From a virus (Duplodnaviria > Heunggongvirae > Uroviricota > Caudoviricetes): a DNA stretch of 64,000 nt. The DNA lies in the IMG/VR virus record IMGVR_UViG_3300025093_000001, one strand, 5' to 3'. Position numbers and translations under genes: made by a program. Position 1 is the stretch's first letter. Every line of letters starts with the position of its first letter. Positions 3,480 to 48,167 of the stretch are shown here, one piece after another. The notes under the pieces are model-generated. The model was not told where the DNA came from. It was given only the letters and a program-made list of their open reading frames with translations, and ran no database searches.

Positions 3480-3509
3480 AGTTCTATTACACTTCTGCAC
3501 AAAAAGAAA

Positions 3510-3540: not shown

Positions 3541-3557
3541 AATCAAAAATACTACAA

Positions 3558-3770
3558 TCAATAGTCAAAATCTTCGCCATCTTCTGTGAGGTCATCATAA
3601 GCCATATCTAAATAGGCTTGTTCATTTTGATGCATCTCATCTAGGCATATTTCACACTCTTCATTTTCATTAAGAAAACAAAGGTGTACAGCACATTGTT
3701 TATGACTGTGCTTTCGCTTCTTCTCTGTTGTCGCCATCTCCGTGTAGTGTATTGGTTTCTCTTCGTGCAA
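3558..3770 (-). CDS. Small acidic Cys/His-rich protein (possible zinc-binding)
   Basis: ORF with CxxHxC...CExC pattern; overlaps the start of the upstream gene. Confidence 0.3.
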   Translation of the reverse strand: MHEEKPIHYTEMATTEKKRKHSHKQCAVHLCFLNENEECEICLDEMHQNEQAYLDMAYDDLTEDGEDFDY

Positions 3771-10708: not shown

Positions 10709-11664
10709 ATTGTGACTTGTCCCTTTTGTTCGTACTCAAACTTAGGATAATCCCAAACGTTTTCTTTTAAATGCCATGCCAAAGTATCAAGGCAATTCAT
10801 CCATCCTTCATAATATACACCATCTATTTCGCCACCAAAAGCTCCTACTTTGAGAGCTTCATCTGATAGTGTGTATATCATAGGAGCACCTATACGAGTA
10901 GTGCTTTCTACGAGAATCTTAAATGGTAAAATTGTATAGTCTGGATATGCAAACATCAATGCTGCAGTATAGAAAGCAGCTTGGAAGTCATACCTAAATT
11001 TATAAATAGCTTCATGAAACTTACTGGTATAACCAGCAGTAGTCTTCAAATCCCATGGTTGAATTGTTTTGTTCTCTTCATCAATTTCAATGAAATCAAG
11101 AAGAGACTTTAATTCAATATCATAGTCTTTGAATCTCCAATAGATAGCTACTTGTGTTTCTGTAGCTGATGGTATCACATGACTTGTAAAAGGATGATTC
11201 ATGATAGACTCACAAATCTCATGTGCCTTAGCTAAAGTTTCACTATCTATAACAGTTTTTCCTCGGGCTTTGACTTTATTCTCAAAGTATTGTGCATTGT
11301 CTATTACAAACTTAAGCCTAGTAGCTCTTTTATTCTTTAGTCTGTATCCTTGAGCTTCAATAATGTTATGTAGAAGCTCCTCTTCAATGACTCCTTGATA
11401 GTCAAAATTTCCCAGTACTTCACAGTGTTCGTAAAATTCATCCCATATAGACTTTATTGCTGTAGGTATACTGTTATCCTCTAGCTCAATAAATCTTTCC
11501 TCTAGCTCATTAGGAGTTAGAAGAATACAATCCACGAGGGAGCCCAGCGTTAAAGCTGAACTCTCCCCAAATGGATTATATAGTTTATATGACATTGGAT
11601 GATTACAAATTTTCTTGAGTCTAGTCTGTGAAACTGACTCACTTTCGTAATACTCCTTACTCAT
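10705..11664 (-). CDS. PD-(D/E)XK family nuclease (RecB/Cas4-like fold)
   Basis: WDLKTT (D-x-K) followed by a QxxxY motif (FQAAFY), characteristic of the PDDEXK_1 / RecB-family nuclease core. Confidence 0.55.
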   Translation of the reverse strand: MSKEYYESESVSQTRLKKICNHPMSYKLYNPFGESSALTLGSLVDCILLTPNELEERFIELEDNSIPTAIKSIWDEFYEHCEVLGNFDYQGVIEEELLHNIIEAQGYRLKNKRATRLKFVIDNAQYFENKVKARGKTVIDSETLAKAHEICESIMNHPFTSHVIPSATETQVAIYWRFKDYDIELKSLLDFIEIDEENKTIQPWDLKTTAGYTSKFHEAIYKFRYDFQAAFYTAALMFAYPDYTILPFKILVESTTRIGAPMIYTLSDEALKVGAFGGEIDGVYYEGWMNCLDTLAWHLKENVWDYPKFEYEQKGQVTI

Positions 11665-15536: not shown

Positions 15537-16366
15537 TATGATTTGTGATTGAGTCCGTATTTATGATTCATGAGTTGCGGTAAGTGTTCGAGATACATCA
15601 AAGTAGTCTTCTCACCAAATGAAGGAGCTGAATTAGTCTCCAAGATTTGAAAGTCTCCTTTAGTGTTAACTCTAACATCAACTGCTCCGACATCAAGCCC
15701 TACCGCAGATAAAGCTTTCTGTGATTGTGCTACAATTTGGCACCAAGTAGTTGGTTTATTGAATTGTTCAGAATCCACATTAGTGAATTTTACGAAATTC
15801 CCATCCTCATCCAACTCTTGTTCTTTCTCTGTAGCCCAGATACAGTTGTTTGAATTGAAATACCATCTCTCTTCAGCATCAGATTTTCTAAGCTTACGGC
15901 AAGCATAGAAGCATCCAAGTGCTGAAACATGTAAACGATACTCTCTAGCTCCTGAAAAGTATTGCTCTAAGTAGTATCCTTGAGTATTACCATTAAAGAA
16001 TTGTAGTAATTGCTCTTCATTCTCAATGAACTGCATACCCCGTCCCCTACTACCAAGAACTTTCTTAGCTACTAATGGATATTTTTCAATCTCAGCAGTA
16101 TTAAAAGGGTCTGTAATGGTGTACATCTTTGGGCTTTGTATCTTACCATTCTTGAAAGCTTCTTTCATCTTCAGTTTATTTGAAGATACTTTAACAGCTT
16201 CAACGGTATTGATTTCGTGAGGAACATCTACCTGCGTAGTGCTGCCAAGACGAAATACAGACTTTCCATCAAATCTTAAGGAAGGATTCTTTCTTAAAAC
16301 TTCATGTGATGGGTGTCTTGAACGTATTCTAACGTATTTAAATTTAGGCGTCTTCATAGTTTCCAC
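15536..16366 (-). CDS. ATP-grasp ligase (RimK-like)
   Basis: PLVAKKVLGSRGRGM glycine-rich ATP-binding loop and downstream YYLEQY...EYR motifs. Confidence 0.65.
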   Translation of the reverse strand: METMKTPKFKYVRIRSRHPSHEVLRKNPSLRFDGKSVFRLGSTTQVDVPHEINTVEAVKVSSNKLKMKEAFKNGKIQSPKMYTITDPFNTAEIEKYPLVAKKVLGSRGRGMQFIENEEQLLQFFNGNTQGYYLEQYFSGAREYRLHVSALGCFYACRKLRKSDAEERWYFNSNNCIWATEKEQELDEDGNFVKFTNVDSEQFNKPTTWCQIVAQSQKALSAVGLDVGAVDVRVNTKGDFQILETNSAPSFGEKTTLMYLEHLPQLMNHKYGLNHKS

Positions 16367-16697
16367 TTTCTACAACAGGGAGACCTCTTTCTCCATCCAT
16401 AAAATACAATTCTGCAGTTGTTTCTTCTCCAGAATCAAGTATTACTTGTATGGGTCTTCTTTGATACCAATTTGGGTGTCCCTCTAACCCATCTACTCTT
16501 GGTACATCTTCTTCAGGAACATCGAATACTTCTACATGAATATTAGATGTAGGCTTATGTGATGATACAAAAGGTATCCCACTAGCATACATAGTATACT
16601 TCTCCTTTGTTTTTCCTGCGTCAACAAACTTTGAGTCTGCTAATAAGCGATTGTTTCCCCAACCTCTTCGCAGTGTTCCATATACAGCAATTCTCAT
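16344..16697 (-). CDS. Gamma-glutamyl cyclotransferase (GGCT/AIG2-like)
   Basis: N-terminal YGTLRRG motif and downstream ...LEGHPNWYQR, typical of the AIG2/GGCT fold. Confidence 0.7.
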   Translation of the reverse strand: MRIAVYGTLRRGWGNNRLLADSKFVDAGKTKEKYTMYASGIPFVSSHKPTSNIHVEVFDVPEEDVPRVDGLEGHPNWYQRRPIQVILDSGEETTAELYFMDGERGLPVVESGNYEDA

Positions 16698-21569: not shown

Positions 21570-22309
21570 ATGATTTTGGCTTGTGTTGTTATTTTATGGT
21601 CACTAGACCATCCATCAGTTGATTGCTTATACCTCTCATCATTAGCTTCTCTAAGAAATTCCTCTACTGTAAGACCAGTTTTAATTGATTTTGCAGTAAC
21701 ATTAGAGTGATTAAATTCCTCAGTAGTGAATACTCGCTTTTTGTGTAAACAATTATCCCATAGAGTTAGTAAAAAACTCATAGGGTCATGCTTTTCAACA
21801 TCGAATTTAAACAATCCTTTAAAAAACTTAGCATTCTGAAACAAGTGTCTACGACTCTTTCCAGTATCTCTAGGCATATACCAGAGACTTCGAAAGAAAT
21901 TCAATAAAATCAAGTTATGTTTATAACTAAGTAAAAGCTTGTACTTAATCCATACTGTTGACTTTTGAGTGATTATTCCTATTTGATTGTTATAAAGCGT
22001 ATCAAGATGTTTTCCCCAGTTATCGTTAAGTTTATACTCAGGCTTAAGTTTGTTAAAATCTGGTTCAATTATCTCACATGGTGTGATTAAATTGATGATT
22101 TTAACTAATTGTTCAGTTATCTCTGGAGTCTCTCCCCCCTTAGTATGAAAAAGGATTTCCTTCCTATCATCACAATGTCTTTTTATAAAAGAAAAACACG
22201 CTTGTGTTGCAGGATTTGAATCAAACTTTCCCTTTTCATTTAATACACCACCTTCTACTCTAAAATTCCCAGCTTTGCCCATACGAATCTTATTAAAGAA
22301 TTTCATCAA
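21560..22309 (-). CDS. Hypothetical protein
   Basis: ORF. Confidence 0.45.
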   Translation of the reverse strand: MMKFFNKIRMGKAGNFRVEGGVLNEKGKFDSNPATQACFSFIKRHCDDRKEILFHTKGGETPEITEQLVKIINLITPCEIIEPDFNKLKPEYKLNDNWGKHLDTLYNNQIGIITQKSTVWIKYKLLLSYKHNLILLNFFRSLWYMPRDTGKSRRHLFQNAKFFKGLFKFDVEKHDPMSFLLTLWDNCLHKKRVFTTEEFNHSNVTAKSIKTGLTVEEFLREANDERYKQSTDGWSSDHKITTQAKIICH

Positions 22310-22949
22310 ATAGATACTTGTTGATGATGTAACCCATTACTCCCATGACAATTCCATCACTGAGTTGTCTTTCTGGATGTCCTTGAATAGCCAAAGAGTT
22401 ACTTTTTGGATAGTAAACTATCTCAGGCTCATTTTGAACAGTATAGGTTTCTCCATCACCACGCTCATACAAGGAGCTACGGCTTGGTTCTGCCCAAGCA
22501 ACTAATTCATATTCATCCTTTGGTAGATTATATGGATACATCATTTGGTGATGTGTAGAAGTCATGGCAATTTTAACGCCATTATTCTTCTTATTGAATC
22601 TAACTGAGTGCTTTCCAACCATTGCGTGACTGGACACATTTTGCACTAGTTTTCCACCATTCATGACTGTAAGAAACTGCGAACCTCTACAAATACCCAA
22701 CATAGGTATTTTCATAGCTGATGCCATAGCAAAGACTCTTGCCTCTAATTCATCACGTTTTGGGTTTGCATATGTTGTTGGGTGAAACTTTTCACCATAG
22801 TACTTAGGTGACACATCAGCACCACCAGTAAACAGAACTAAATCTGCCTCAGTTAGTACTTTAGTATCTCTAGGCTTAATATCTAAGCCATTTAAGACAC
22901 CTATATAGCTTAAAGCTCCTCCTACAACATAAACGTTCAGTTGTTCCAC
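22293..22949 (-). CDS. Class I glutamine amidotransferase-like hydrolase (peptidase C26 / PuuD-like gamma-glutamyl hydrolase)
   Basis: GICRGSQ nucleophile elbow (Cys) with downstream His...E catalytic positions. Confidence 0.65.
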   Translation of the reverse strand: MEQLNVYVVGGALSYIGVLNGLDIKPRDTKVLTEADLVLFTGGADVSPKYYGEKFHPTTYANPKRDELEARVFAMASAMKIPMLGICRGSQFLTVMNGGKLVQNVSSHAMVGKHSVRFNKKNNGVKIAMTSTHHQMMYPYNLPKDEYELVAWAEPSRSSLYERGDGETYTVQNEPEIVYYPKSNSLAIQGHPERQLSDGIVMGVMGYIINKYLFDEIL

Positions 22950-24054
22950 TAAATGTTTTTTGCATTTATGTATTCAACAGGTCCATCTAAGTCCTGCAAT
23001 GCTTTAGCTACCCATTTCTCATCCTGAGTTTGTAACACCTGCATAATATAAAATTCTGCTTGATGTCCCTCTCTCCATCTTACGATACGTCCAAGACGTT
23101 GGATAAGTTCTCTTGGTTGGCTATTTAATTGCACTACAAGGGCTTTATCGACATTAGGTATGTTAGTACCTTCATTGACCTTATCAGCTACTCCTAAACG
23201 GCTTATTTTGCCCTCTATGAACTTCTTATATGCCTCATCATTAGTCTTAGAATGAAAAGTGTGAGCACACAACTCATCAATTCTAGGAATTGATTTATGG
23301 AATATAAGGATTCGGTCTTCTTTTGGAAGTGAAGCCAATAACCTAGTGGCTACATTATGCTTACTTCTCAAATTATAGATAAATCTCATTCTGTTAAGGT
23401 ATAAGTACTTAGGTACATCCTTACCTGAGAACATTATTCTCCTTATTTGATTAGACAAGTATTGATACTGCTGCATTTCGGTCGTATAAAAACGATTCTT
23501 CTTATTACCAGCTAAGATATACTTCTCTTTATCATCTAAGAAAGACTCTATAATCTTGATTTTATATGGTGCTGCTATTCCTAAAGCAACTGCTTCATCT
23601 AATGGTAAATGGTAAACCACTTTTAAACCAATAGACTCTAACAATGACCTTTTAACCTCTTCATGAGGTGGTGTTGCAGACAAACCAATGGTATTTCCTA
23701 CCTTGTTCTGTTGAAAAAATTGATAATTGTTTTCAGTAATTCTATGACATTCATCAAGAACTACTAGGTCAAATTCATAACCCTCTAGTTTGTTGAGACT
23801 GGCATAACATACGAGATGGACTTTGCTGAAATCAGAACCCCACTTAACAAATTCTTGTTTAATCCCTTCATCTCGGAGTTTCTCTGTGGGTACAACCCAA
23901 AGGATTCTCCTCTTCCCTTGTTCTTTAGCAATTCAACGTAGTCAATTCCTACTTTTGTTTTACCAGTTCCTGTAGCCATAGCTACTAAGCCACTACCGCC
24001 TTGCGACGTGACTGCTTGTAATGCTTCTTTTTGGACTCTATCCTTTTCTTGCAT
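22949..24054 (-). pseudogene. SF2 (DEAD/DEAH-like) DNA helicase interrupted by a -1 frameshift near 23925..23935
   Basis: N-terminal piece (23785..24054) carries Walker A ATGTGKT. After a one-base frame change the reading continues RILWVVPT...DLVVLDECHR...GLSATP and then motif VI QRLGRIVRW into 22949..23683. Confidence 0.6.
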
Positions 24055-25099: not shown

Positions 25100-27076
25100 T
25101 TAATGTTTCCAATAGGAAGTTATTTGAGGTTCAGCTTGTAGAGGAACTACTTTACAGTAGTAGTTACCTGCATTTTCCATGCATACTTTTAAAAGATTTG
25201 AGACGTGTTCAGCAATTTCTTCAGGGCATTCCACTACAATCTCATCATGAATGAAGTTACAAATCTTAACTGTAAACAGTAAGTTCTGCTCTATCAACTT
25301 GTTGAGAAATAGTATACCTGCTACTTTTGTGATACTCGCTGAAGTTCCTTGAATAGGATAGTTCAATGCTTTTCTCTCAATTGCAGCTTTCTGTCTATAA
25401 AAAGTGCTAACGACTGGTCTTAACTCTCTATGAAAGTATTCATCGTCTTTTTCTTTATGGTATCTGTACTCATCCCAAAATTCTGGAGTGAGTTTCTCTT
25501 GTTCTGTATCAAACCATTGCTTATCAAAGAATAGTTTGGATTGGTCTACCTCATTAAATAGAATATATCCCTTTTTCCATAACTCATCTTTCTTCTTCTT
25601 GAAATAGTCATTTAGACCTGGGAAGGCATCAAAGTAAGCTTTGTATACAGCTTCTCCCTGTTCAATAGGAATAGATAAATTGTTTGATATTGTCCAACCA
25701 TTACCACCATAGTTAATGGCAAAACCTGCAGCTTTAGCAATCTGTCTTAATTCAGGATAATTGGCTTTAATCTCCTTAAGAGATAAACCTTTCAACTCAG
25801 GGAATATCTTAGAAGCAACAAAACTGTGCATATCTCCAAGATTCTGTGCATAGAAATGCAACAATCCCTCATCCATAGACTGATTGGCTAATACAATCTG
25901 CTCTTGTCCTGAATAGTCAGCTACAACAAGAGTATTACCCTCTTCTGCAACAAAGCAACTTCTTACTTCTTCTGCAGCAGGGATATTTTGGAAGTTTAGA
26001 GTCTGTACACCTGTACTAGAATCTTTACCACCAGAACTGAGTCTCATAGTGTCCATTATTTGAGTAAACTGTGTATGCAGTCTACCAGAGGCAGGATTAA
26101 TCTGGTCAGTTACATTAGTACCATAAGTAGATACTTGTTTTTGCAAACCTTTGTACCTAAGATACACAGGTAAGATAGGATGTTTATCCTTTTGAGGTCT
26201 TATTACAGGGGCCTCGATACTTTTGGATTTCTTTCCATCTTTTTCAACTATTAGGTCTAAACCTAAATCCTCAAAGAAGGGAATGACTTGGTGAGAACTA
26301 TTCCAATTGATAGCAGAACCAACAGGTAGGAACATGTCCAACTGTTTTTCTTGATACTTTGGAAAATCTCTTATGATATAATCATCCAACTCTTTTTCAA
26401 CCTTCTCTAGCTTTTCAATATTCCTTTTGTATAGAGATAACCACTTCTCCTTGTCCAATTTAAATCCACAGAATTCACAGTAAGCAAGTACAGGACAATA
26501 GGAATTTTGAAGGCGAATAGCCCTCTCTAAACCTAGTCTCTTTACTTTCTTCATCTGCTCTGTGCGAATTTGATTAAGATACTTAACATCACGTCCCGCA
26601 TAAGTAATTACAGTGTCGTCTAGCCCACGGTAATGAATTTGACCACGCACTTCCTTACTAAGCTCAACGTTGCAGTATCTTTTAACCAAGGCATCAAGAC
26701 TCATTCTAAGGAATCTTGGTTTACCTAAATTAAGCATTCTTTCCACGAGATATGTATCATACACTTTAGTGCAGACAATATTATTCATGAATAAGAATCT
26801 CAAATCAAATTTTGCATTTTGAAATAAGTATGTTTTATCTGACTGTTCAAAAAACTCTTTATAATCAGCAATAGGATAATCCTTTTCACTAATTACAAAT
26901 TGAGTATTTCCGTCACCTATCTGCCAACACAATAGATTTTTAGTCCAAGGGTCAAAACCCTCAGTCTCTGTGTCAACTTCAACAAACTCCTTATCTTCAA
27001 AATATTTTAATGCATCTTCAATAGATGCAAGGGGAATGGACTCTCTCTTCTCCGAATCTCCTACAAAATATATCAC
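25100..27076 (-). CDS. polA: Family A DNA polymerase with 3'-5' exonuclease domain
   Basis: Exo motif EVDTET; motif B RQIAKAAGFAINYGG; motif C IHDEIVVE. Confidence 0.85.
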   Translation of the reverse strand: MIYFVGDSEKRESIPLASIEDALKYFEDKEFVEVDTETEGFDPWTKNLLCWQIGDGNTQFVISEKDYPIADYKEFFEQSDKTYLFQNAKFDLRFLFMNNIVCTKVYDTYLVERMLNLGKPRFLRMSLDALVKRYCNVELSKEVRGQIHYRGLDDTVITYAGRDVKYLNQIRTEQMKKVKRLGLERAIRLQNSYCPVLAYCEFCGFKLDKEKWLSLYKRNIEKLEKVEKELDDYIIRDFPKYQEKQLDMFLPVGSAINWNSSHQVIPFFEDLGLDLIVEKDGKKSKSIEAPVIRPQKDKHPILPVYLRYKGLQKQVSTYGTNVTDQINPASGRLHTQFTQIMDTMRLSSGGKDSSTGVQTLNFQNIPAAEEVRSCFVAEEGNTLVVADYSGQEQIVLANQSMDEGLLHFYAQNLGDMHSFVASKIFPELKGLSLKEIKANYPELRQIAKAAGFAINYGGNGWTISNNLSIPIEQGEAVYKAYFDAFPGLNDYFKKKKDELWKKGYILFNEVDQSKLFFDKQWFDTEQEKLTPEFWDEYRYHKEKDDEYFHRELRPVVSTFYRQKAAIERKALNYPIQGTSASITKVAGILFLNKLIEQNLLFTVKICNFIHDEIVVECPEEIAEHVSNLLKVCMENAGNYYCKVVPLQAEPQITSYWKH

Positions 27077-27754: not shown

Positions 27755-28023
27755 CTTACTACAGTTATGAGGTGAAGCATTTTAGTTCGGAATTTATGTA
27801 GTACATTGACTTCATAATCCAAATTAAGCTCCTTTCTCAGTTCCTTGTTAGAGGTTTTCCAAATAGGCACAATTACATGGCTTTTCTTTCTACCTCTTGT
27901 GATTTTTCTGTTGTTGCCTGTAGGCATCTTATATCTACGAAGCCTCCGCGAGGGAAACTCTTGGCGTAGAATCTGTCCTGGCCTCAGGTGCAGAATGTCT
28001 TCATGTGTTACGGTCCTGTTCAT
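27745..28023 (-). CDS. Small basic protein
   Basis: ORF. Confidence 0.3.
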   Translation of the reverse strand: MNRTVTHEDILHLRPGQILRQEFPSRRLRRYKMPTGNNRKITRGRKKSHVIVPIWKTSNKELRKELNLDYEVNVLHKFRTKMLHLITVVRWR

Positions 28024-28591
28024 TGAGATTGTAAATATGAACTCCTAAATCATTCCCTGTTCTAGGGTTATTGAACGTATTGACGAGTTCCCATTCATTA
28101 CGTTCCAAAATTTTTTGTTGTGGTGTATTACTGAGGATAGTGGTACACATTAAACATCCAAATCCATTAGCTCTCGCTATGTCTTTACGAAGTTCATTAA
28201 GAATAGTACCAATACCTTTACCTCTGTACTTTGGGTCTACAGTAGACCCTGTAGAGACAACTATTCCACAACATCCGGGCATTTGTCTCATGGTAAATTC
28301 TGAAATTACTTTACCACTAAGAGTGAGTAATCTGAAAGTCTGCCTACTTGAGTAATCATACCCATAGTTTAACTTAAAGGTATAACCATTCCCGTAATCT
28401 CTGACAACAGCCCAGCCGTGCCCAAGAATATCAGTTAGTTGTTGTTCATAAGGTTTTAAGACATCTTGTCTTTTACTTGTAACCTGTTTGACAACTCTTT
28501 TGAGCTTTCTAAGCCCTCGATTTAAACTAGCCATTTCATAAGTTTTTAGTGGACCTGAGGGGAGTCGAACCCCCGTCCAGCGTAACATCAA
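28001..28591 (-). CDS. GNAT family N-acyltransferase
   Basis: RGKGIGTILNEL (R/Q-x-x-G-x-G acyl-CoA binding motif) after a beta strand. Confidence 0.55.
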   Translation of the reverse strand: MMLRWTGVRLPSGPLKTYEMASLNRGLRKLKRVVKQVTSKRQDVLKPYEQQLTDILGHGWAVVRDYGNGYTFKLNYGYDYSSRQTFRLLTLSGKVISEFTMRQMPGCCGIVVSTGSTVDPKYRGKGIGTILNELRKDIARANGFGCLMCTTILSNTPQQKILERNEWELVNTFNNPRTGNDLGVHIYNLNEQDRNT

Positions 28592-28954
28592 ATATACAAA
28601 TTATACATGCTTAAAAATTAGGGCTGAATCTGGAATTCAACCTCCACCAGGGTAGTGATAACAGCTAAACCTACGGGTCTTTCAAGGATACTGTCACTCC
28701 AAATTTATACTCTCCTTATCCTTTTTCGAGTTAAATTTTACCCCTTTTCTGTTCCTAGGTAGGGATAACACCTGCTGCATTACGCTACTGCTACTTCACG
28801 CTCTGCAACTACCATAGTTGAGATGAACTCTTCTACAGTAGTGTTAGATAAACTGTTTCCAGTTATTTGTTAATTTACGAGATTCAAGTCAGAGTAAATC
28901 AATCTGACTGCATGTTCATATACTCTCAGATACCTGTCAATTCCAGTCAGGCCC
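28550..28954 (-). ncRNA. ssrA: Candidate tmRNA (ssrA-like), about 405 nt
   Basis: Minus-strand 5' end GGGCCUGACUGGAAUUGACAGG closely matches the tmRNA 5' consensus GGGGCUGAUUCUGGAUUCGACGGG. The 3' end GGACGGGGGUUCGACUCCCCUCAGGUCCA gives a T-arm plus a 7-bp acceptor pairing with the 5' end, including a G3-U wobble. CUCGUAAAU and an internal about 30-codon open frame ending ..VAVA-UAA sit where a tag ORF is expected. Confidence 0.5.
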
Positions 28955-29361
28955 TAAAATAGTTTCTTCTGTAAACTGGCTTCAAAGCCGTATAAGAAGA
29001 TTTTCACATTTAATCCAGCTAAGTTAGCCAGATTTATCATGTGTTTTGTTCCTTTTGAACGTCCGTCCCAAAATACTACCAATGCATCAGCATAGTCAGC
29101 CATTTGTTTGTTACGGATATATCCTGCAGATTTACCATGTTTATCCCAGTCTGCAGGAAACTGACGAAGGGGAATAGAATGCTCTTTGGCAAACTTTTCC
29201 CCCAATCTATCAGCTCCTCTTGCAGTGCCTGAGACAATCTCACTTATCTCAGCAATATCGTAGTTATTTAACAATATATGCTTAAGATGAGCATAGTCTG
29301 TAAAGTCTCTGCTACCTGCAATTATGAGTTTCATTCGAAAGGTATTGAATACTCTTGACAA
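28954..29361 (-). CDS. SLOG-fold protein (DUF2493/YspA-like, LOG/DprA-related Rossmann fold); predicted nucleotide-binding
   Basis: IIAGSRDF...GxARGAD...ALVVFWDGRSKGTKHMI pattern. Confidence 0.5.
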   Translation of the reverse strand: MSRVFNTFRMKLIIAGSRDFTDYAHLKHILLNNYDIAEISEIVSGTARGADRLGEKFAKEHSIPLRQFPADWDKHGKSAGYIRNKQMADYADALVVFWDGRSKGTKHMINLANLAGLNVKIFLYGFEASLQKKLF

Positions 29362-30290: not shown

Positions 30291-31007
30291 TCAATACACA
30301 TTTGTATTGGCATCATGGTGGTCTACTTCGACTAATTCTTTATTACGAAGTAGTTCCATAATATGAGAATAGCTAATAGGACCATAATATCCAAATTGGT
30401 TGAAAATAGTATCAACTCCTACATCCATAGCTTTACGTTTGTAATAGTCTGGTGTAGTGTGATACATAGAATTGTGGCAATGACCATGAAGATGTATCCA
30501 TCCTTTCATATGACCATTCCACACAAAGAGTGGATAGTGACAAAGTACGAAATTATACTTCTTAGCTTTTTGTTGACGACCATTAACAATTGGTTGAGCC
30601 TCTACAATTGTCAATTCAAGTAATTCATGAACTGATTTGAAAAGATGTTTATAGTGAGCTCTAATCCAATGGTCATGGTTTCCAAATACTAAATGCACAT
30701 TTTTACATAGAATTCGGTCAAGAAAATGAGGAATCTGAGTCTTATCACCAAAAGCAAAGTCACCTAAATGAATAAGAGTGTCATTGGGTTGAACTCTTTT
30801 ATTGATTTCCTCTAGAAGAAGAGTATTCATATACTCTAGATTTTCGTTCATATCACGCATACCACCCTTTTTCCACTTACTGATACCTTTTACAATATTA
30901 GTATGGTTAAAATGAGTATCTGATGTAAACCAGATATTACCATCATTTGTATTTAATCGCATGAGGATTGTTTTGTAGCTTGTGATACATATCCAATTGT
31001 CTTTCAA
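30291..31007 (-). CDS. Calcineurin-like metallophosphoesterase (candidate polynucleotide 3'-phosphatase)
   Basis: SDTHFNH, GDFAFGD, GNHDHW and HGHCH motifs. Confidence 0.7.
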   Translation of the reverse strand: MKDNWICITSYKTILMRLNTNDGNIWFTSDTHFNHTNIVKGISKWKKGGMRDMNENLEYMNTLLLEEINKRVQPNDTLIHLGDFAFGDKTQIPHFLDRILCKNVHLVFGNHDHWIRAHYKHLFKSVHELLELTIVEAQPIVNGRQQKAKKYNFVLCHYPLFVWNGHMKGWIHLHGHCHNSMYHTTPDYYKRKAMDVGVDTIFNQFGYYGPISYSHIMELLRNKELVEVDHHDANTNVY

Positions 31008-31416
31008 GTATCTCTTTGCCTACCTTACGAATACGTAGGGTCTGACGCTCTAATAGAGTACCCATATCAGCATCGAAATACTTGTATTCCACATCAATTC
31101 CCTTATCTTTCAAGACATCATATCTTTTAAGGTATTTGAGTTTTAGATGTGTAGCATCAACAATGACTGTTTTGTTTAGATTAAGAGAGCTGTGTATCAA
31201 TATATTTTCATATATTGTAACTTCTTTCTCTCTTGCAGGAAAGTCATGTCGAAGGTAATACTCTTTAATGTTATCTTCAAGATAACCAAAGAGTAACTCG
31301 CGAATCTTGTCCCTATTGACAATAACAACATTGTTAGGGTCTTTTATATGGGCCTCATGAGCCCAGGTAGATTTACCTGAGCCCGAAGGTCCAATAAGTA
31401 TGATTAACTTAGGCAT
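30943..31416 (-). CDS. P-loop NTPase/kinase (candidate polynucleotide 5'-kinase)
   Basis: Walker A GPSGSGKST at the N-terminus; about 157 aa; adjacent to the phosphatase and RNA ligase. Confidence 0.55.
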   Translation of the reverse strand: MPKLIILIGPSGSGKSTWAHEAHIKDPNNVVIVNRDKIRELLFGYLEDNIKEYYLRHDFPAREKEVTIYENILIHSSLNLNKTVIVDATHLKLKYLKRYDVLKDKGIDVEYKYFDADMGTLLERQTLRIRKVGKEILERQLDMYHKLQNNPHAIKYK

Positions 31417-31811
31417 TATGACATTACGGTTTGTAACTGTTTTAAAACTTCTTTCAGATGTTTGTTATTATCATAGATACCCATGAAGGCATCTTGAGAG
31501 ATATTTTGTCGTTCAAAGAGATTCTTCACAATAAAAGAATCGCTAAAGAACCTAGATTTACATTGAGTAAGTACCTCTGCAAACTCACCATCTGAAGTCA
31601 TAAGTGTACAAAGATAACCATCATTTGTCTTCTTTAGAAGAACATATGGATGATTGAAGATTGGATGCATAAATATATCACCAACTTTGAATTGTTCAGG
31701 TGTACCAAGATGTTTATCTTTTGGAAGAGACTGTATCCAACGAAACAGTTCATCTCTTGTAGGTAAATTTTGCATCTCACGCAATTTCTCTAATAGGTCA
31801 TCACGTTTCAT
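31416..31811 (-). CDS. Hypothetical protein
   Basis: ORF between the kinase and ligase. Confidence 0.4.
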   Translation of the reverse strand: MKRDDLLEKLREMQNLPTRDELFRWIQSLPKDKHLGTPEQFKVGDIFMHPIFNHPYVLLKKTNDGYLCTLMTSDGEFAEVLTQCKSRFFSDSFIVKNLFERQNISQDAFMGIYDNNKHLKEVLKQLQTVMS

Positions 31812-33115
31812 GCGGTATCCTCAATATTAGATTCTCCTGCATCAAGTTGTTTAGTCTCAAATTCAAGAAATTCAAAGCTTTTCAACTTATAAATCTCATA
31901 TTCATAGAGTCTTTCAACTCTGAGACATATACCTTCAGCAGGAACCTTGTTGTTACACCTAAAACATCTTTCACCATTAGCATAGTCATCCTCTAAATTA
32001 GAGATGAATTTTTCATGCCAATACTCACCAGTATGCAGTTGAGGATATAAATCTCTCGCTTTACCTGTAAAATACCTGTAAGATGGATTCAATCTGTTTC
32101 TCAAACAGAACTCAACTATCTGTGGTGTAGACAACTCCATAACTACTCCATTTGGATTAGTATAAGTTATTCTATACACTTCAAGTTTGTGTTCTCCTGG
32201 TCTGCAACCATAATCAAATGGTTTTTGAATGAAATTTCCTTCCTTATCATAGCCTATCATCTCTCCATAGAGAGTAAAGCCTTTAGGAATTTTGTATCCA
32301 ATCTCATCTTTGATGTCTTTCCACAAATCATAGCCATAGAAGTGGTCTTGTCCCTTTGGGTCTTCGAACTGTTTATTCTTAACTACTCGTCTTGAACCAT
32401 AGACCAAATCATACTCTTCTGTTTGTATCTTAACACCAAGATTAAGGAGTACTTTCTCAATCCAATTTAACTTCTTCTTTACTAGCACATTACTGACCCA
32501 CCACGAGGTTCCATGTGTCTTATAGGTAATAGAGATAGTATCTGATGGCTTGATATTAGACATGTATTTTCTGAGATTATCAGTATCTACATGTAAATGT
32601 ACTTGTCCCTCAATCAGTCTTGACAGGGCTGGTTTTTTGCCTTTTTTGTTAGGTGGTCCATCATGTTTGTTGACCTTTTTGATGTATTTCTTGAGAAGCA
32701 ACTTCTCATTGATAGTATCAAACTCAGTATTAACAAAATCTGATGGATTTTTATTGACACCAGCCCATTCAAATACATGATTAGCTGGTACAATATATCC
32801 CATACTCCTCTCACCTCTGAGGCTCATGGCTTTGACTCTACAATGCTTTTCAAAGAACCCACCTTCATCTGGTTCTGTATTGAGAGTCTTGTCTCTAAAA
32901 CTATTAGTCTTAGAAAGAAAGTCTTTATTAATCTGACACTCCACAGGAAAGTATACATAGATATCTCCATCTTTTGCTTTCATGTCAGTGATTACATTTT
33001 GAAAGTCTATGAGACAGGTTTGTAGCCTATCTGCATTAGAATGTTTCTGTAATCCCTTTAGTTTAACAACCTTAGCTAAATAGTTAGGGTTAAACTGGTC
33101 GCTTTTCTTGAGCAT
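31808..33115 (-). CDS. RNA ligase (Rnl2-like nucleotidyltransferase)
   Basis: Motif I YKTHGTS matches the T4 Rnl2 KIHGTN lysine-adenylate motif. Confidence 0.55.
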   Translation of the reverse strand: MLKKSDQFNPNYLAKVVKLKGLQKHSNADRLQTCLIDFQNVITDMKAKDGDIYVYFPVECQINKDFLSKTNSFRDKTLNTEPDEGGFFEKHCRVKAMSLRGERSMGYIVPANHVFEWAGVNKNPSDFVNTEFDTINEKLLLKKYIKKVNKHDGPPNKKGKKPALSRLIEGQVHLHVDTDNLRKYMSNIKPSDTISITYKTHGTSWWVSNVLVKKKLNWIEKVLLNLGVKIQTEEYDLVYGSRRVVKNKQFEDPKGQDHFYGYDLWKDIKDEIGYKIPKGFTLYGEMIGYDKEGNFIQKPFDYGCRPGEHKLEVYRITYTNPNGVVMELSTPQIVEFCLRNRLNPSYRYFTGKARDLYPQLHTGEYWHEKFISNLEDDYANGERCFRCNNKVPAEGICLRVERLYEYEIYKLKSFEFLEFETKQLDAGESNIEDTA

Positions 33116-33128
33116 TCTTAATTAAGTA

Positions 33129-33344
33129 TTAATCCGCTTCAACTATATAATACCAAACAAGTATGATATTCAAGATTATCCAAGTAACAACGGGGACAGC
33201 TTGTCTACCATCAGGAGCACACTCATGCCAACAAAGGACATTAGACTCTCCCCAAGTAATTGAAGCCCCTATCCAAAGGGTTAGGGTAAAGGCTATAAAA
33301 GCAATTATTACCTTTTTTCTAACTAAATTATTACGATAACTCAT
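33129..33344 (-). CDS. Small membrane protein
   Basis: Two hydrophobic helices. Confidence 0.35.
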   Translation of the reverse strand: MSYRNNLVRKKVIIAFIAFTLTLWIGASITWGESNVLCWHECAPDGRQAVPVVTWIILNIILVWYYIVEAD

Positions 33345-33489
33345 AGATTTTTGATTATTGGTTCTTTACCTCCCTCAAAAACTATCCAAATTGTGCAACA
33401 GGGAAGTATATTGATGCACAGTCTTTTGTTGAACTTTGAATAGTGGAGCCCTATCCAGAAACTCCACCATCGAAAAAGAAATCCTGCTT

Positions 33490-33822
33490 TCATGATATAA
33501 AGTATTTCCAATATTCTTTTACTGCTGAGGCAAATTCTTCAAGATTTTTTCCACCAGAAACTGTTCCACCCATAGTTCTACATAAAATACCCTTAATGAT
33601 AGGATAATAATTATCTCCACTATATAGACCATTGTCAGGACTTAAGAAACCATACATTTTCTTATATGAAAAATCTATAGTTCCAATAGAAGAATCTTCC
33701 CAAAAGCTAACACCATTAATTTTAAGTGTTCTTTTACCTCTAAAGTTAAGTTTAGGAGAATAACCTTCCCAAACTCTTTCTTTAAAGTTCAGTTGCCAAT
33801 CTTTTAGTTCTTGTAAAGTCAT
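33490..33822 (-). CDS. Hypothetical protein (start moved to the internal Met to avoid the tRNA)
   Basis: ORF 33490..33879 overlaps tRNA-Leu; the internal ATG gives MTLQELKD... Confidence 0.4.
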   Translation of the reverse strand: MTLQELKDWQLNFKERVWEGYSPKLNFRGKRTLKINGVSFWEDSSIGTIDFSYKKMYGFLSPDNGLYSGDNYYPIIKGILCRTMGGTVSGGKNLEEFASAVKEYWKYFIS

Positions 33823-33836
33823 TATTGTTTTTTTAG

Positions 33837-33922
33837 TGCAGGAGGAGGGAGTCGAACCCTCACGAACATTACTGCTCACAGGATTTTAAGTCCTGCGTGT
33901 CTACCAATTCCACCACTCCTGC
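33837..33922 (-). tRNA. tRNA-Leu (anticodon UAA), type II with long variable arm
   Basis: Acceptor GCAGGAG/CTCCTGC; anticodon stem CAGGA/TCCTG with loop CUUAAAA; T-arm GAGGG-TTCGACT-CCCTC; 86 nt. Confidence 0.6.
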
Positions 33923-34014
33923 ATACCACTAGAGAAAGTATTTCAACTCTCTGTAGGCGACTATATTTATCATCTATAATTATTAAATCCCTACGCCTGT
34001 GCGACCTAGTGTTG

Positions 34015-34088
34015 TACACCCAATAGGAGTCGAACCTATAACCTACAGCTTAGAAGGCTGTCGCTCTATCCAATTGAGCTATGAGTGT
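34015..34088 (-). tRNA. tRNA-Arg (anticodon UCU)
   Basis: Clean cloverleaf: acceptor ACACTCA/TGGGTGT; D-arm GCTC..GAGC; anticodon arm ACAGC-CUUCUAA-GCTGT; T-arm ATAGG-TTCGACT-CCTAT; 74 nt. Confidence 0.7.
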
Positions 34089-34192
34089 ATATAGAGATAA
34101 ACTCTATATGTCTTTTTGCATCCATTTGATTATCTTGCGAATTGCAATGAATACTAGGCAAAGACAGCCTAAATAGATTATACTAACTGTTG

Positions 34193-34567
34193 TTATCCCC
34201 ATAATAGAATCAAATAAACGGTTAGAATAATCCTTATGTTGTGTAGTAATTGGTCAAGACCCATTACATTTACAGCTTCCCACATTCTGTCTTCTTGAAG
34301 ATATCTGGTTGATACACGGCTTGTAATACTATCAATAATGTAGTGAGTTACAAGAGTTATGGGTATAAACAACCACATCCAATGAGTAAAACCTACTCCT
34401 ACAGTAAGAATAAGAATAAGTGGAATATAAGAGAATGAGTAAATACTCACATGTCTTATTAGAGTATCTAGCTGACTAGACTTACTTTGCCTAGTGTCTA
34501 AATCCTGAAGGATATAGTCTGCCAAATAATGATAGACCAAAAATCCAATGATTAATGCTGTATACAT
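34193..34567 (-). CDS. Integral membrane protein
   Basis: Three or four hydrophobic helices. Confidence 0.45.
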   Translation of the reverse strand: MYTALIIGFLVYHYLADYILQDLDTRQSKSSQLDTLIRHVSIYSFSYIPLILILTVGVGFTHWMWLFIPITLVTHYIIDSITSRVSTRYLQEDRMWEAVNVMGLDQLLHNIRIILTVYLILLWG

Positions 34568-34570
34568 TTG

Positions 34571-34597
34571 AAAAAAAGGGGAGACCTAAGCCTCCCC
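34571..34597 (-). terminator. Rho-independent terminator downstream of the NadV gene
   Basis: On the minus strand, GGGGAG-loop-CTCCCC followed by a run of seven T. Confidence 0.45.
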
Positions 34598-34607
34598 TTG
34601 CGACAGT

Positions 34608-36086
34608 TTAAACCAAGGCTGCGACACGCTCCCTGATTTGGGTTAAAGTTGTTGGGTTGAAGAATAGTCCATCCTCATAGATTGTTTGGAGTTCCCCCTC
34701 TCTTTCTTCTAACCAACTTACTTGGTCTTTTAATACAAGACCATCAGCGGTTTTCACAACTTGAAGTAGTCCCTTGGCACTCTTTTTAGTTCCGTCATCA
34801 GTAATAGGGTCTTTGTAGATTTCTCTACCAATTACTTTTCCCTCGGCATCTGTAATTTCTACATAAGTTGCTTTCATAGCAAAACCAAAAGTGTCACGAG
34901 TGTTGAACTGGTAAGTAAAGCTTCCTATGCCCAGTACCACGTTAGTACTTGCAAAGCCTTTCTGTTCCAACCGTTGACATATTTCTTCAGCTCTTTCCAA
35001 GGTGATAGAGTCTCCATAGATTGCTCCAATCTTAGGATTTAGAACTTTGTATCCCTGCTCATTTACAGTTCCACCAAATTCATCCCAAAGGAGTTCAATT
35101 ACACCTTTGTGTTCAGGTAAAGTTTTCATGTCTTCTCGGTCATCCATTACAGTTCCACAAAGGATGTCAGCAGGATTACCAGAATCAGGACGAATGACAA
35201 TTTTACCATCTCTTGCAAGAATTTCATCATGTAATTCAGGCAAATAAGCTGTCAACACTTTCCACAAGTCCCATGTATCAGATACAATGGAGAGAATACC
35301 TTTAGGAAAGATAGACATAAGCCTACGAAATGTGTCAATTTCAGTTTCATGACCACCAGCACACATCACTGAGTGCTCGGTAGCATTTACTGAGTAAATC
35401 ACTCCATCAGGTTCACGATAGTATTTTCTGGCGCCATGTATTGTTGGCAAACTATCAGAACCTAAGAAGCTTGTTGCATGACCTAATCCTGAACTAATGA
35501 CAGCTTCGAGGGAGTCCATGCCTCTCATAGAGAAATCATGTCCTTGAAAATCCACAAAGCCGACATTATCAGCATCGGTCTTGAGTGCCCATTTAGTGAG
35601 TACTTTCTTGAACTCAAGGGCAATTGTTGCGGATGTAATAGGTTTCCACAACAAGTTGGAGATTAAAGTCTCCAGGAAGTTTGTCAACCAGAAGAACTCT
35701 TCATAAGTATTCTTAATGGTTAACACGGGTACACCAATGGGACACAACGTTCCTTCTTCCAAGGCTTTCATTTCAATAGGGAGAAAACCTAAATCCCACA
35801 GGGCTTCGATATGAGAGACATCATAATCCATACCTAGGTACATGGAATACTCGTCTTTAATCTCATTACAGACTGCTCTTTTGGGTTGATTGAAGAAATC
35901 ACGTTGAAAACCATCGTGTATTTGATGCATGACCATTTGGAGTCCAAAGACAACTACGCTGTCTATTCCATTTGGTGCATACTTATTGCTTCGAGGTGTA
36001 AAGTTGGATACAACCAAACTTGTTCCCTCTGGATACATAGGCATGTGACCTGTTTTGTACCCATCAGTTCCTAAAAATGGATTCAT
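34608..36086 (-). CDS. nadV: Nicotinamide phosphoribosyltransferase
   Basis: N-terminal MNPFLGTDGYKTGHMPMYPEGT matches the NAMPT family N-terminus; about 490 aa. Confidence 0.8.
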   Translation of the reverse strand: MNPFLGTDGYKTGHMPMYPEGTSLVVSNFTPRSNKYAPNGIDSVVVFGLQMVMHQIHDGFQRDFFNQPKRAVCNEIKDEYSMYLGMDYDVSHIEALWDLGFLPIEMKALEEGTLCPIGVPVLTIKNTYEEFFWLTNFLETLISNLLWKPITSATIALEFKKVLTKWALKTDADNVGFVDFQGHDFSMRGMDSLEAVISSGLGHATSFLGSDSLPTIHGARKYYREPDGVIYSVNATEHSVMCAGGHETEIDTFRRLMSIFPKGILSIVSDTWDLWKVLTAYLPELHDEILARDGKIVIRPDSGNPADILCGTVMDDREDMKTLPEHKGVIELLWDEFGGTVNEQGYKVLNPKIGAIYGDSITLERAEEICQRLEQKGFASTNVVLGIGSFTYQFNTRDTFGFAMKATYVEITDAEGKVIGREIYKDPITDDGTKKSAKGLLQVVKTADGLVLKDQVSWLEEREGELQTIYEDGLFFNPTTLTQIRERVAALV

Positions 36087-36991
36087 CTGTTATCAGGGTT
36101 AAAAAGTTCAATTACATTCAAATTATCAGGCTTTTCCTCAATAGTACCATCCTCATCAACAACATGCATATAGTAATCATATGTGCTATTGGTGGTGTAT
36201 ACTCTATCAAAGTAACGTACTACTGAATCTTTACCTAAGTTTTGTACAGTCATATGACTGACAGCCAGGAATAATCTTCCTGCATTTCTCTCTCGTAATA
36301 ATTTGGCTAAACCTTTAAAGGTTCCACCATATACGCAAATATCATCAACAATGAGTACATCCTTACCCTTAAAGTCATTGACTGAAAGAATTTGATGTAA
36401 CTTACCATCTACACGAGATTTAGACGCAGAGTGAACCTTACCTCCCCATCTTAGCCTTTTAACTGTATCCATAAGAGGCTTATAACCTCCTGCATCAGCA
36501 GCTAAAAGATGAACAAGAGGATACAGTCTTTCATTTACAGTTGTAATATAATGGTCATGTACCCACTCTGCAGGTAAATGATATACATTTATTGCTAAGT
36601 CTTGAAGTACTTTCTCAATGAAAGTATAATTCTTTAAGATTGCGACATTATTCAAACCCATTTCCACTGCTTGAGGATTGTGTGGATGATAAATAACATA
36701 AATATCTACATCTAAAGAATTAAGAAAATCAAGAACTATCTTGAGACTATAAGAATACCGCCCAAATCTTGAGTCAGCCTGTGCATCAATAAGACGAGGA
36801 AGAGTTACCTGTAGCTTTCTACGATTCATTGAATCATATTGTCTAAAAGCATCAACATACTGTGCTAATTGCCACAGTTGTTCATAGTTTTGGATGCGCC
36901 ATACTATCTCTGATTTTTTAGCATCATCAGTTCTGAAATAAGATGTACCATCAGGATAATTGTGCATCAATATAGGTTTATCACTCATCAT
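36083..36991 (-). CDS. PRTase-fold protein, ribose-phosphate pyrophosphokinase (PRPP synthetase)-like
   Basis: VLIVDDICVYGGT PRPP-binding loop at the position expected in Prs; about 300 aa; translationally coupled to nadV. Confidence 0.5.
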   Translation of the reverse strand: MMSDKPILMHNYPDGTSYFRTDDAKKSEIVWRIQNYEQLWQLAQYVDAFRQYDSMNRRKLQVTLPRLIDAQADSRFGRYSYSLKIVLDFLNSLDVDIYVIYHPHNPQAVEMGLNNVAILKNYTFIEKVLQDLAINVYHLPAEWVHDHYITTVNERLYPLVHLLAADAGGYKPLMDTVKRLRWGGKVHSASKSRVDGKLHQILSVNDFKGKDVLIVDDICVYGGTFKGLAKLLRERNAGRLFLAVSHMTVQNLGKDSVVRYFDRVYTTNSTYDYYMHVVDEDGTIEEKPDNLNVIELFNPDNR

Positions 36992-45129: not shown

Positions 45130-45326
45130 TGTGGTATGCTATATTGAGATTGAGTCTGCTGGGTTTAGTGTTGATACTAGTCATTGGGCAGATATTAGGT
45201 CTCACTATAGCATTATCAGTTTTGTTTGTATTTGTTAGAGTGTTATTGACAGCAATATTCTATATATCAATTCCAAAGATTATACTGTATTTAACAGATA
45301 TGTATGGAAAAAAGAAAAAACACTGA
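45129..45326 (+). CDS. Small membrane protein
   Basis: Two TM helices. Confidence 0.35.
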   Translation: MWYAILRLSLLGLVLILVIGQILGLTIALSVLFVFVRVLLTAIFYISIPKIILYLTDMYGKKKKH

Positions 45327-48084: not shown

Positions 48085-48154
48085 TGCGGGGAGAATGAGT
48101 ATTCCAGCTGGTCTCATAAGCCAGCCTCCGTGGGTGCGACTCCCACCTCCGCAA
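48085..48154 (+). other. tRNA-like element (acceptor-like stem TGCGGGG/CTCCGCA, T-arm-like GTGGG-TGCGACT-CCCAC, 8-nt loop hairpin GCTGG-TCTCATAA-CCAGC) lacking a clear D-arm
   Basis: Stems read directly in an 83-bp gap between two + strand CDS. Confidence 0.25.
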
Positions 48155-48167
48155 CTAAAGAAAACAA

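Follow-up and report, generated by a model that had tools for sequence, protein, structure and literature searches.

A full-length one-piece tmRNA gene with a 26-codon tag frame in a phage of Bacteroidota

The virus record IMGVR_UViG_3300025093_000001 of IMG/VR, a stretch of 64,000 nucleotides (nt) that was analyzed as a whole and is called the window here, carries a transfer-messenger RNA (tmRNA, ssrA) gene at positions 28550..28954 of the minus strand. A first-pass annotation had proposed a tmRNA at this place from the letters of the DNA, and the covariance model named as a check bears the proposal out: in an Rfam scan, RF00023 matched window 28547-28954 over the whole model (1-374) with 78.1 bits and an E-value of 1.3e-28, well above its gathering score of 47 bits. 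The second check, ARAGORN, went the other way, calling three tRNAs and no tmRNA on the window. RNA positions are numbered as nt n = window position 28955-n, and by sequence reading and RF00023 the RNA comprises nt 1-405, ending at the discriminator A; on the minus strand the gene reads 5' GGGCCUGACUGGAAUUGACAGG ... GGACGGGGGUUCGACUCCCCUCAGGUCCA 3'. CUA follows the discriminator A at 28550, so that CCA is absent from the gene, as it is from Bacteroidota tmRNAs. The gene order is colinear and the model matched is RF00023 rather than RF04321, which argues against the permuted two-piece form, and the allele is uninterrupted by an intron. The gap free of open reading frames (ORFs) reported at this place is real, but its size of 362 bp came from a TTG-extended ORF call; the intergenic space occupied by the tmRNA measures 419 nt, between an upstream stop codon that overlaps nt 1 and a downstream ATG at 28534. 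The tmRNA is present in six independent assemblies, the five other copies being identical to the window copy. Window 28550-28954 of the minus strand is therefore confirmed as a full-length, one-piece, phage-encoded tmRNA.

The same phage was assembled separately from JGI, ENA and Logan data, with flanks 99.99-100% identical and the tmRNA identical, and the tmRNA lies inside contigs of ~102 kb with identical gene order and phage hallmark genes on both sides. In the window, these hallmarks include a large terminase (52954-55119), a portal, a major head protein, a family A DNA polymerase (25100-27076), a ribonucleotide reductase, a primase and helicases. Hallmarks on both sides together with a full-length RNA indicate that the gene is phage-encoded and represents neither a host flank nor an attachment-site (att) fragment. 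The capsid and terminase proteins match solely phages of Bacteroidota, namely FpV4, Cellulophaga phages and crAss-like phages, with identities of 40% and 34%, respectively, to Flavobacterium phage FpV4 (Fipvunavirus). The virus is thus a phage of Bacteroidota related to crAss-like phages and FpV4, which carries the tmRNA in its replication and auxiliary module.

All features of the RNA lie on the minus strand, and their pairing was compared with that of the closest relative, L141, and of a family of viral long-tag tmRNAs, both described below. The tRNA-like domain is complete, and the 7-bp acceptor stem with its G3-U pair and the canonical T-arm of the first-pass annotation are both recovered. 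The 5' strand GGGCCUG (nt 1-7, 28948..28954) pairs at 7/7 positions with CAGGUCC (nt 398-404, 28551..28557), including the G3-U70 alanine identity pair. This G-U pair is invariant in 12/12 family members, while the other acceptor pairs covary; pair 5 changes compensatorily from C-G to U-A in L141. The T-arm GGGGG-UUCGACU-CCCCU (nt 381-397, 28558..28574) has 5/5 pairs and a T-loop of the UUCGANU type; two of its pairs change compensatorily in L141 and across the family, and there is no anticodon arm. Helix 2 joins nt 19-45, with the invariant CAUGC (28910..28936), to nt 345-376, with UAAGCAUGUA (28579..28610). It is supported by the Rfam alignment, by family covariation (alignment helices 2-4) and by the L141 comparison, and contains CAUGC/GCAUG at nt 41-45/345-349 (5/5 pairs) and a 7-bp segment at nt 31-37/358-364.

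Pseudoknot 1 (28870..28909) is a compact H-type fold directly upstream of the resume codon, with a 7-bp stem 1 (AGUCAGA/UCUGACU, nt 46-52/62-68), a 9-bp stem 2 (UUGAUUUAC/GUAAAUUAA, nt 53-61/77-85) and loops of 0/0/8; its 3' part is CUCGUAAAU, the segment noticed earlier where pseudoknot 1 was expected. In L141, 5/9 pairs of stem 2 are altered (four double changes, one wobble) with complementarity retained, and across the family the stem 2 sequences of pseudoknots 1 and 2 vary between lineages while their pairing is kept. The tag-coding part contains a 10-bp hairpin (nt 113-122/138-147, 28808..28842), with a comparable hairpin in the family tags (alignment helix 8). Pseudoknot 2 (28738..28773) combines AGGUG/UACCU (nt 182-186/194-198) as stem 1 with UUAUCCC/GGGGUAA (nt 187-193/211-217) as stem 2, and its loop holds the invariant A-rich AACAGAAAA (nt 202-210). 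In the pseudoknot 3 region (28684..28738), the stem AAGGAUA/UAUCCUU (nt 232-238/265-271) is supported, with a compensatory A-U to U-A change in L141; a second stem, AAAUUUA/UAAAUUU (nt 217-223/248-254), is tentative, two of its pairs being broken in L141. A search for the four classical pseudoknots, as had been advised, hence finds only two or three that are clear.

At the place expected for pseudoknot 4 lies a 9-bp hairpin, GGUUGAAUU-CCA-GAUUCAGCC, followed by a U-run (nt 313-333, 28622..28642); this is the 3' segment that had been flagged as partly complementary to the 5' end. The complementarity is there, as an 8-nt Watson-Crick match between the D-loop-like nt 9-16 (window 28939-28946) and nt 318-325, centered on the GGAAUUCC palindrome, but the match of nt 9-16 to the loop region of the nt 313-333 hairpin is marginal (P about 0.03, dinucleotide shuffles). 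As a terminator-like hairpin inside the RNA, the structure is not above chance, and neither the hairpin with its U-run nor the 8-nt complementarity is supported by any relative. In E. coli tmRNA, helix 5 and later pseudoknot elements are replaceable (PMC2481249). The retention of the tRNA-like domain, helix 2, pseudoknot 1 and the resume context, along with loose or expanded later pseudoknots, fits the parts known to matter in that species.

The frame-setting U90 A91 and the resume codon GGA (nt 95-97) occupy 28858..28865, with A91 four nucleotides before G95; the E. coli RNA sets its frame at the same distance, four nucleotides past the conserved A86 (PMC2481249). The resume context U90 A91 A92 C93 U94 / G95 G96 A97 reads UAACU/GG, as in 60+ Bacteroidota tmRNAs that resume at GGC. 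From GGA, a tag frame of 26 codons (28780..28860) encodes GNSLSNTTVEEFISTMVVAEREVAVA and ends at UAA (nt 173-175), with homolog conservation in its support. This is the open frame ending in VVAEREVAVA-UAA that had been read before, and its ending, EVAVA, is unlike ALAA, as stated then. A canonical ALAA-type degron is thus lacking at the tag end, yet the C-terminal residue is still alanine and the end hydrophobic, and the tags of relatives end in AVAA, AIAA, LILA or LELA. The earlier idea that the tag lets its products avoid normal proteolytic routing finds no support, the AVA end being hydrophobic and the relatives' AVAA, AIAA and LILA being near canonical degrons; tagged fragments would probably still be proteolyzed by way of the hydrophobic alanine C-terminus.

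The closest relative is found on the Logan contigs L141 and L142, which were reached by tracing a homing endonuclease. Over the first 273 nt, identity between the tmRNA of these contigs and the window RNA is 72%, and in L141 translation is predicted to resume at the same GGA, giving the tag GDVSNTTVEDFLSTMEVAQEELILA. The window tag is nearest to this one, with 15/25 residues identical and SNTTVE-F-STM-VA common to both. Among the 25 aligned tag codons, 8 are identical, 7 differ synonymously and 10 carry replacements, of which 7 are conservative. From the window to L141, 64/71 base pairs are kept; in 11 of these both partners have changed, and in 3 there is a wobble change. The two-sided changes affect pair 5 of the acceptor stem and two pairs of the T-arm, the CAUGC helix and helix 2, and, among the pseudoknots, four pairs of stem 2 in pseudoknot 1, stem 1 of pseudoknot 2 and the stem of pseudoknot 3. 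This pattern of codons and base pairs establishes that the lineage of the window itself is constrained in RNA structure as well as in peptide.

A wider family was found by a scan that allowed a longer body (tags of 26-27 codons from nt 92-94) and was enlarged by two motif scans. It comprises at least 13 viral loci with full tmRNAs of 349-684 nt, the length range resulting from expansions after pseudoknot 2; the core loci (L115, L116, L118, L121-L124, L127, L130, L131, L133 and L135) lie on IMG/VR contigs of up to 121 kb. ARAGORN missed 7/13 of these full-length relatives, and those seven score 64-84 bits with RF00023. Twelve loci have the tag [AGD]xTxSxRVAEG[ED]AILAS[IL]F[GA][ED]VA[VI]AA in common, in which residues 7-26 are nearly invariant and changes mostly synonymous. 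The variable sites of the family tag are distributed 7/6/19 over the three codon positions, 11 codons varying synonymously only and 4 being invariant. This third-position excess shows purifying selection on the tag peptide, which in turn implies translation.

The window RNA and the family agree in the resume position (nt 90-95), the tag length, the 16-nt tag end GUGAAGUAGCAGUAGC (...EVAV-) and AACAGAAAA. Its tag of ~26 codons, its EVA[VI]A(A) ending encoded from GAAGUAGCA... and its AACAGAAAA loop, 23-26 nt past the stop, place the window RNA in the same lineage, as defined here. Over the first 20 residues its tag differs from that of the family, and the resemblance is C-terminal only. With the 27-aa tag of another viral locus, L119, the window tag shows significant likeness (P 0.0005), and a last viral scan for further tags of the window type returned only L119 again.

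Covariation was assessed on an alignment of 12 sequences, in which the 5' part through pseudoknot 2 was joined to the 3' part and folded with RNAalifold into 73 pairs. Paired cells amount to 93.1%, against 81.0% in shuffles and 39-47% in slid controls. Pairs changed on both sides number 38/73, against 19.2 in shuffles (0/500 reach the observed value) and 9-16 in slid controls. Together with the L141 comparison, these alignments show that the RNA structure and the predicted peptide are under purifying selection at both levels, that of the window's own lineage and that of the family as a whole.

Tags and scaffolds appear to be separable. L118 and L119 are identical at 91/93 positions before the tag (98%) and at 32/84 within it (38%), and such tag swaps on near-identical scaffolds look like cassette-style replacement. 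Other searches for relatives returned nothing of this kind. Megablast of the tmRNA region against 50,697 phage records gave no match, and sensitive blastn against phage records aligned only the universal 3' T-arm and acceptor end of other phage tmRNAs. An exact 22-mer and the first two-anchor pattern had no match in viral contigs, and the scan of one metagenome yielded 85 loci, every one of them a host-type Bacteroidota tmRNA with a GE..YA[LM]AA tag and none a relative. The lineage had no match in the isolated phage records searched, and the tag strings were not found in indexed papers or supplements, a negative that is limited to the collections searched.

The T-loop of the window gene contains an empty homing site for a group I intron, between nt 387 (U) and nt 388 (C) (28567..28568, minus), which is occupied in a sibling. 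This sibling, L098 (ENA ERZ27265261 k141_2878621), equals the window over 20.5 kb except for a 670-nt T-loop insertion and the change C391A, which lies four nucleotides into exon 2. The insertion, at 9298-9967 of L098 (...GGGGGUU / intron / CGAAUCCCC...), is a group I intron by RF00028 (103 bits, E 1e-25). Its -1 U pairs with G in P1, its last base is G, and it carries an antisense LAGLIDADG gene of 137 aa; splicing in silico restores a canonical UUCGAAU loop. Two ENA contigs of 101,740 and 102,410 bp differ by the intron, 670 bp exactly. That L098 and the window are otherwise so nearly identical suggests that the intron was gained by homing, or lost, very recently and that the flanking exon was co-converted.

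A 2025 tmRNA database paper describes T-loop introns at four subsites, of which subsite 3 occurs only in the class Bacteroidia; by our reading of that paper's numbering, UU/CGAAU is subsite 3. Related introns occupy the same site elsewhere. In the bacterium Marinoscillum luteum (L137, GCA_044005705.1, 2244-2920), the site reads GGGUU/.../CGAAUCC, and the LAGLIDADG gene of the intron, on the sense strand, shares about 40% identity with that of the phage. L141/L142 hold an intron 77% identical together with a related endonuclease, and a related intron and endonuclease are likewise present at this site in the phage contigs L138-L140, two of them about 100 kb long. The bacterial intron at the same site would fit an exchange of introns between the ssrA genes of host and phage, and the use of the T-loop by a mobile intron is expected for a transcribed, conserved target. 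Intron-split genes also evade detection: for L098 the Rfam scan scored the intron only and made no tmRNA call, and L141 and L138-L140 were found by BLAST and motif search only, again with no Rfam tmRNA call. The scaffolds of L139 and L140 are near-identical, and their tags, GNRIVRIAA and ARVINFTPAVAVVRIAA, differ in size.

Introns and homing endonucleases seem to be common in this phage group. Among the 11 loci returned when the genome collection was scanned for T-loop introns, L106 alone was real. This 4-kb contig, from a metagenome-assembled genome bin of an uncultured Flavobacterium, is at 758-4016 a putative phage fragment with an HNH endonuclease, a Thg1-like tRNA-repair enzyme and a tmRNA. 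Its tmRNA, with a 16-residue tag (GKVVSFPQRVSARLAA, read by eye), is split after UUCGACU by a group I intron (83.5 bits) with an antisense HNH gene. In L004 (53% polymerase identity), a LAGLIDADG_2 gene at 15348-16458 stands beside a weak group I intron match of 30.8 bits, below threshold, and in L116 the DNA polymerase is split by two GIY-YIG endonuclease genes.

In the immediate neighborhood, a YAcAr/SLOG-domain gene (28954..29361, minus; PF10686, 5.5e-15) lies upstream of the tmRNA and contributes the overlapping stop codon. Downstream, a gene for a GNAT-family acetyltransferase of 177 aa (28001..28534, minus; PF00583; exact protein match P0121) starts at the ATG mentioned above. Further upstream, an RNA-repair set identified by PHROG (547, 505 and 968, with Pfam AAA_33 also listed for the set) consists of a phosphoesterase (30291-31007), a polynucleotide kinase-like protein (30943-31416) and an RNA ligase (31808-33115), all on the minus strand. 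These are followed on that strand by tRNA-Leu(UAA) and tRNA-Arg(UCU) genes (33836..34088; ARAGORN and Rfam) and by NAMPT and PRPP-synthetase-like genes (34608-36991). The RNA ligase, kinase, phosphoesterase, two tRNAs, NAMPT and PRPP synthetase thus all lie <8 kb from the tmRNA and on its strand; the auxiliary cluster at 30291-36991 also includes DUF3307. Its content suggests RNA repair and salvage of nicotinamide adenine dinucleotide (NAD), both known kinds of counter-defense, and the neighborhood as a whole suggests a gene block that keeps translation and metabolism running under attack. Only as context do the RNA-repair, tRNA and NAD-salvage neighbors hint at a role of the tmRNA against host nucleases or host defense; in the putative phage fragment L106, too, a tmRNA adjoins a tRNA-repair enzyme.

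Elsewhere in the window, the replication block contains amidoligase, glutamine amidotransferase, COOH-NH2 ligase, GGACT and Peptidase_C26/GATase genes (11657-16366 and 22293-22949, minus), and these amidoligase-type genes may form a small-molecule or nucleic-acid modification pathway. A 71-nt tRNA-Met(CAU) at 48085-48155 (plus) was called by ARAGORN and falls under the Rfam tRNA gathering score in the whole-window scan. Near the tmRNA, the contigs with long-tag tmRNAs share little else with the window phage, only two window ORFs having homologs there. A PhoH-like protein (45304-45963, plus) has homologs near the tmRNA in L120 and L134 (42-44% identity), and a helicase-like ORF (22952-23932) is about 30% identical to counterparts near the long-tag tmRNAs of L124, L127 and L131.

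We consider it likely that this phage-borne ssrA gene is functional, that its ancestry lies in Bacteroidota and that, as a divergent member of the long-tag lineage, it gives extra ribosome-rescue capacity during infection. The tmRNA would be transcribed together with the long gene block of the minus strand; its processing from a polycistronic RNA is proposed because the vicinity has no promoter-like site above chance. Host RNase P and 3' processing enzymes would then cut it out, a host enzyme would add CCA, and the host alanyl-tRNA synthetase would charge it with alanine by way of the G3-U pair. A search of the window for an SmpB homolog found none, and host SmpB would therefore be required. 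With it, the tmRNA could enter ribosomes stalled on broken or non-stop mRNAs, where translation would resume at GGA (nt 95, set by A91), add Ala and GNSLSNTTVEEFISTMVVAEREVAVA, end at UAA and free the ribosome. The likely benefit is rescue when host shut-off or host nucleases damage mRNA or tRNA and would lock up ribosomes, and the conserved long tag body suggests an additional recognition step.

Several observations weigh against a functional ssrA. The absence of promoter-like sites above chance is one of them; another is that the gene is not universal in the phage group, the nearest phages by DNA polymerase (39-59% identity, 53-59% for the closest; L001 and L003-L005) having no tmRNA in the fetched flanks, which were scanned to E 1 in L003-L005 and at the gathering threshold only in L001. 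An ORF-free gap in L003 was considered as a tmRNA and rejected. Structurally, helix 5 is poorly formed, the family's pre-stop hairpin is broken in the window RNA, and at the pseudoknot 4 place only the hairpin and no knot was established. The tag lacks an ALAA end and is one Ala shorter than the family AVAA, the RF00023 score of 78 bits compares with 115-148 bits for host-type Bacteroidota tmRNAs, and all copies of the window allele are identical and hence uninformative on constraint. The low score, the degenerate helix 5 and pseudoknot 4, the lost ALAA end and the missing gene in the polymerase relatives would all be expected of a decaying host ssrA copy with no present function. We nevertheless regard decay as very improbable, given the compensatory changes relative to L141 in the acceptor stem, T-arm, helix 2 and pseudoknots 1, 2 and 3, the synonymous or conservative tag substitutions, the membership in a covarying family, a composition adapted to the phage and the exact fit between two genes in a compact genome. 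An integration-site remnant, that is an attP-type ssrA fragment left by a temperate ancestor, has next to no probability: ssrA is a common integration site and prophages often carry its 3' fragments (PMC9004378, PMC11915505), but here the 5' half, pseudoknot 1 and the tag are all present in a full-length gene, the about 50 window proteins scanned include no integrase, and the phage is related to lytic crAss-like and FpV4-like phages.

The remaining alternatives concern what the tag and the RNA do. Read in another frame, CUG/GAA at nt 93/96 leads to UAG at nt 120-122 and a short tag (L)ETVYLTLL, which has E2, Y5 and the 9-codon length in common with the host tag GENNYALAA and places its stop at the top of the strongest local hairpin. 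The frame-setting A, however, is four nucleotides before GGA, L141 resumes at this GGA, and both L141 and 13 other relatives keep the long frame as a peptide; this conservation removed the short frame, which now seems hardly credible, and with it an accidental frameshift of a host-type tag by a 2-nt deletion was dropped. It is also improbable, if less so than decay, that the RNA is a decoy that titrates SmpB or competes with host tmRNA, blunting quality control or a tmRNA-dependent defense or signal. Such inhibition of endogenous tmRNA is known for the RNA of phage DS6A, limited to the tRNA-like domain, when expressed in E. coli (PMC4131195, PMC11915505), and with no SmpB in the window the phage RNA must compete for the host protein; a decoy, on the other hand, needs neither pseudoknot 1 nor frame-setting context, open tag frame and stop, all of which are kept, with the tag under selection as a peptide. 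A more serious rival, though still rather unlikely in our view, places the selected function mainly in the tag, as a long peptide put on truncated, mainly host, proteins and read by a specific host or phage factor for recycling, sequestration or signaling. Selective tagging of host proteins has been proposed (PMC9004378), and conservation of the peptide in diverse phages reaches well past the C-terminal degron (residues 7-26), with SNTTVE-F-STM-VA in both the window and L141 tags. Long acidic tags occur in unrelated phage tmRNAs as well (25 aa in cluster C mycobacteriophages, 27 aa in L119), and L118 and L119 carry wholly different tags on near-identical scaffolds, as if the tag type were selected. 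Against this, no candidate partner was identified, the RNA hairpin inside the tag could account for part of the conservation, and the E. coli tag template is replaceable without loss of rescue (PMC2481249), which leaves ribosome release the better established function.

Beyond this locus, we tentatively propose, as something possible rather than probable, a phage-specific tmRNA lineage whose long tag, of at least two types (...RVAEGEAILASIFGEVA[VI]AA and ...SNTTVE-F-STM-VA...), is selected as a peptide and exchangeable between scaffolds, with phage and host ssrA exchanging a homing group I intron by way of the T-loop common to both and with phage tmRNAs much commoner than the 2.3% of 18,146 phage genomes found in one survey. 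If this holds, phages attach a purpose-built peptide to stalled products for some recognizing factor, beyond boosting host-type rescue. ARAGORN-based annotation (e.g., Pharokka) missed the window gene and about two thirds of its relatives, and intron-split copies escape the Rfam tmRNA model too; published phage tmRNA frequencies are therefore probably underestimates. Selection on the tag as a peptide in related viral tmRNAs implies that the tag matters beyond ribosome release, and the tag could serve as bait for partners. The RNA-repair, tRNA and NAD-salvage neighbors point to a role that can be tested, the upkeep of translation while RNA or NAD is under attack by the host, and the natural pair of genomes with and without the T-loop intron is well suited to studying how introns home between the ssrA genes of host and phage. 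Tag family, tag swaps and intron polymorphism together offer an entry point to why phages carry tmRNAs.

Phage tmRNAs have been known since the Bxz1-type mycobacteriophages and are also reported from phage G, huge phages, marine myophages and crAss-like Burzaovirus; cluster C mycobacteriophages already have annotated long acidic non-ALAA tags. The novelty implied by the first-pass annotation was accordingly overrated. What appears to be undescribed is a viral lineage with conserved 26-codon tags and the intron form of phage tmRNA genes, the 2025 tmRNA database paper describing no intron-form tmRNA in a phage. With the one-piece tmRNA of Bacteroidota (RF00023; tags GE[NTSE][NTS]YA[LM]AA), the window RNA shares the G3-U tRNA-like domain, the UUGACAG...CAUGCAG helix 2, pseudoknot 1, UA at -5/-4 of a Gly resume codon, UAAGCAUGUA near the 3' end and the unencoded CCA. 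It differs from the host form in being phage-encoded and AT-rich, in its 26 codons versus 9-10, in its AVA end versus ALAA/AMAA, and in its degenerate helix 5 and pseudoknot 4, as reflected in 78 versus 115-148 bits.

The cluster C mycobacteriophage tmRNAs (Bxz1 group, tag ATDTDATVTDAEIEAFFAEEAAALV) are likewise complete and one-piece, encoded by large lytic phages alongside phage tRNAs, and their 25-aa tag is, like that of the window, long, acidic and non-ALAA with a hydrophobic end. Host phylum and scaffold are different, however, only the T-arm and acceptor end aligning, and a kinship of the tags was rejected as not significant (P 0.67 with the window tag). Burzaovirus crAss-like phages (cr7_1, cr124_1) and marine myophages such as Melnitz come from similar groups or habitats and also have phage tmRNAs with non-ALAA tags (D/GNVNNIVDYTNVA), but these are circularly permuted two-piece RNAs (RF04321), whereas that of the window is one-piece. 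The annotated tmRNAs of crAssphage cr7_1 (L006, NC_055895.1, 2942-3305) and of L007 are permuted, with 66 bits for RF04321, and in cr7_1 the 3' end of the annotated tmRNA coincides in part with a tRNA-Cys call. Among the intron-form genes, L098, L141/L142 and L138-L140 share the M. luteum site UU/CGAAU, while the window allele is intron-less with UUCGACU; the endonuclease gene is antisense to the intron in the phage copies and in sense orientation in M. luteum. The DS6A mycobacteriophage RNA is, like the window RNA, a phage-encoded tRNA-like domain of tmRNA; it has neither tag nor pseudoknots and inhibits tmRNA, whereas the window RNA keeps all the tagging parts.

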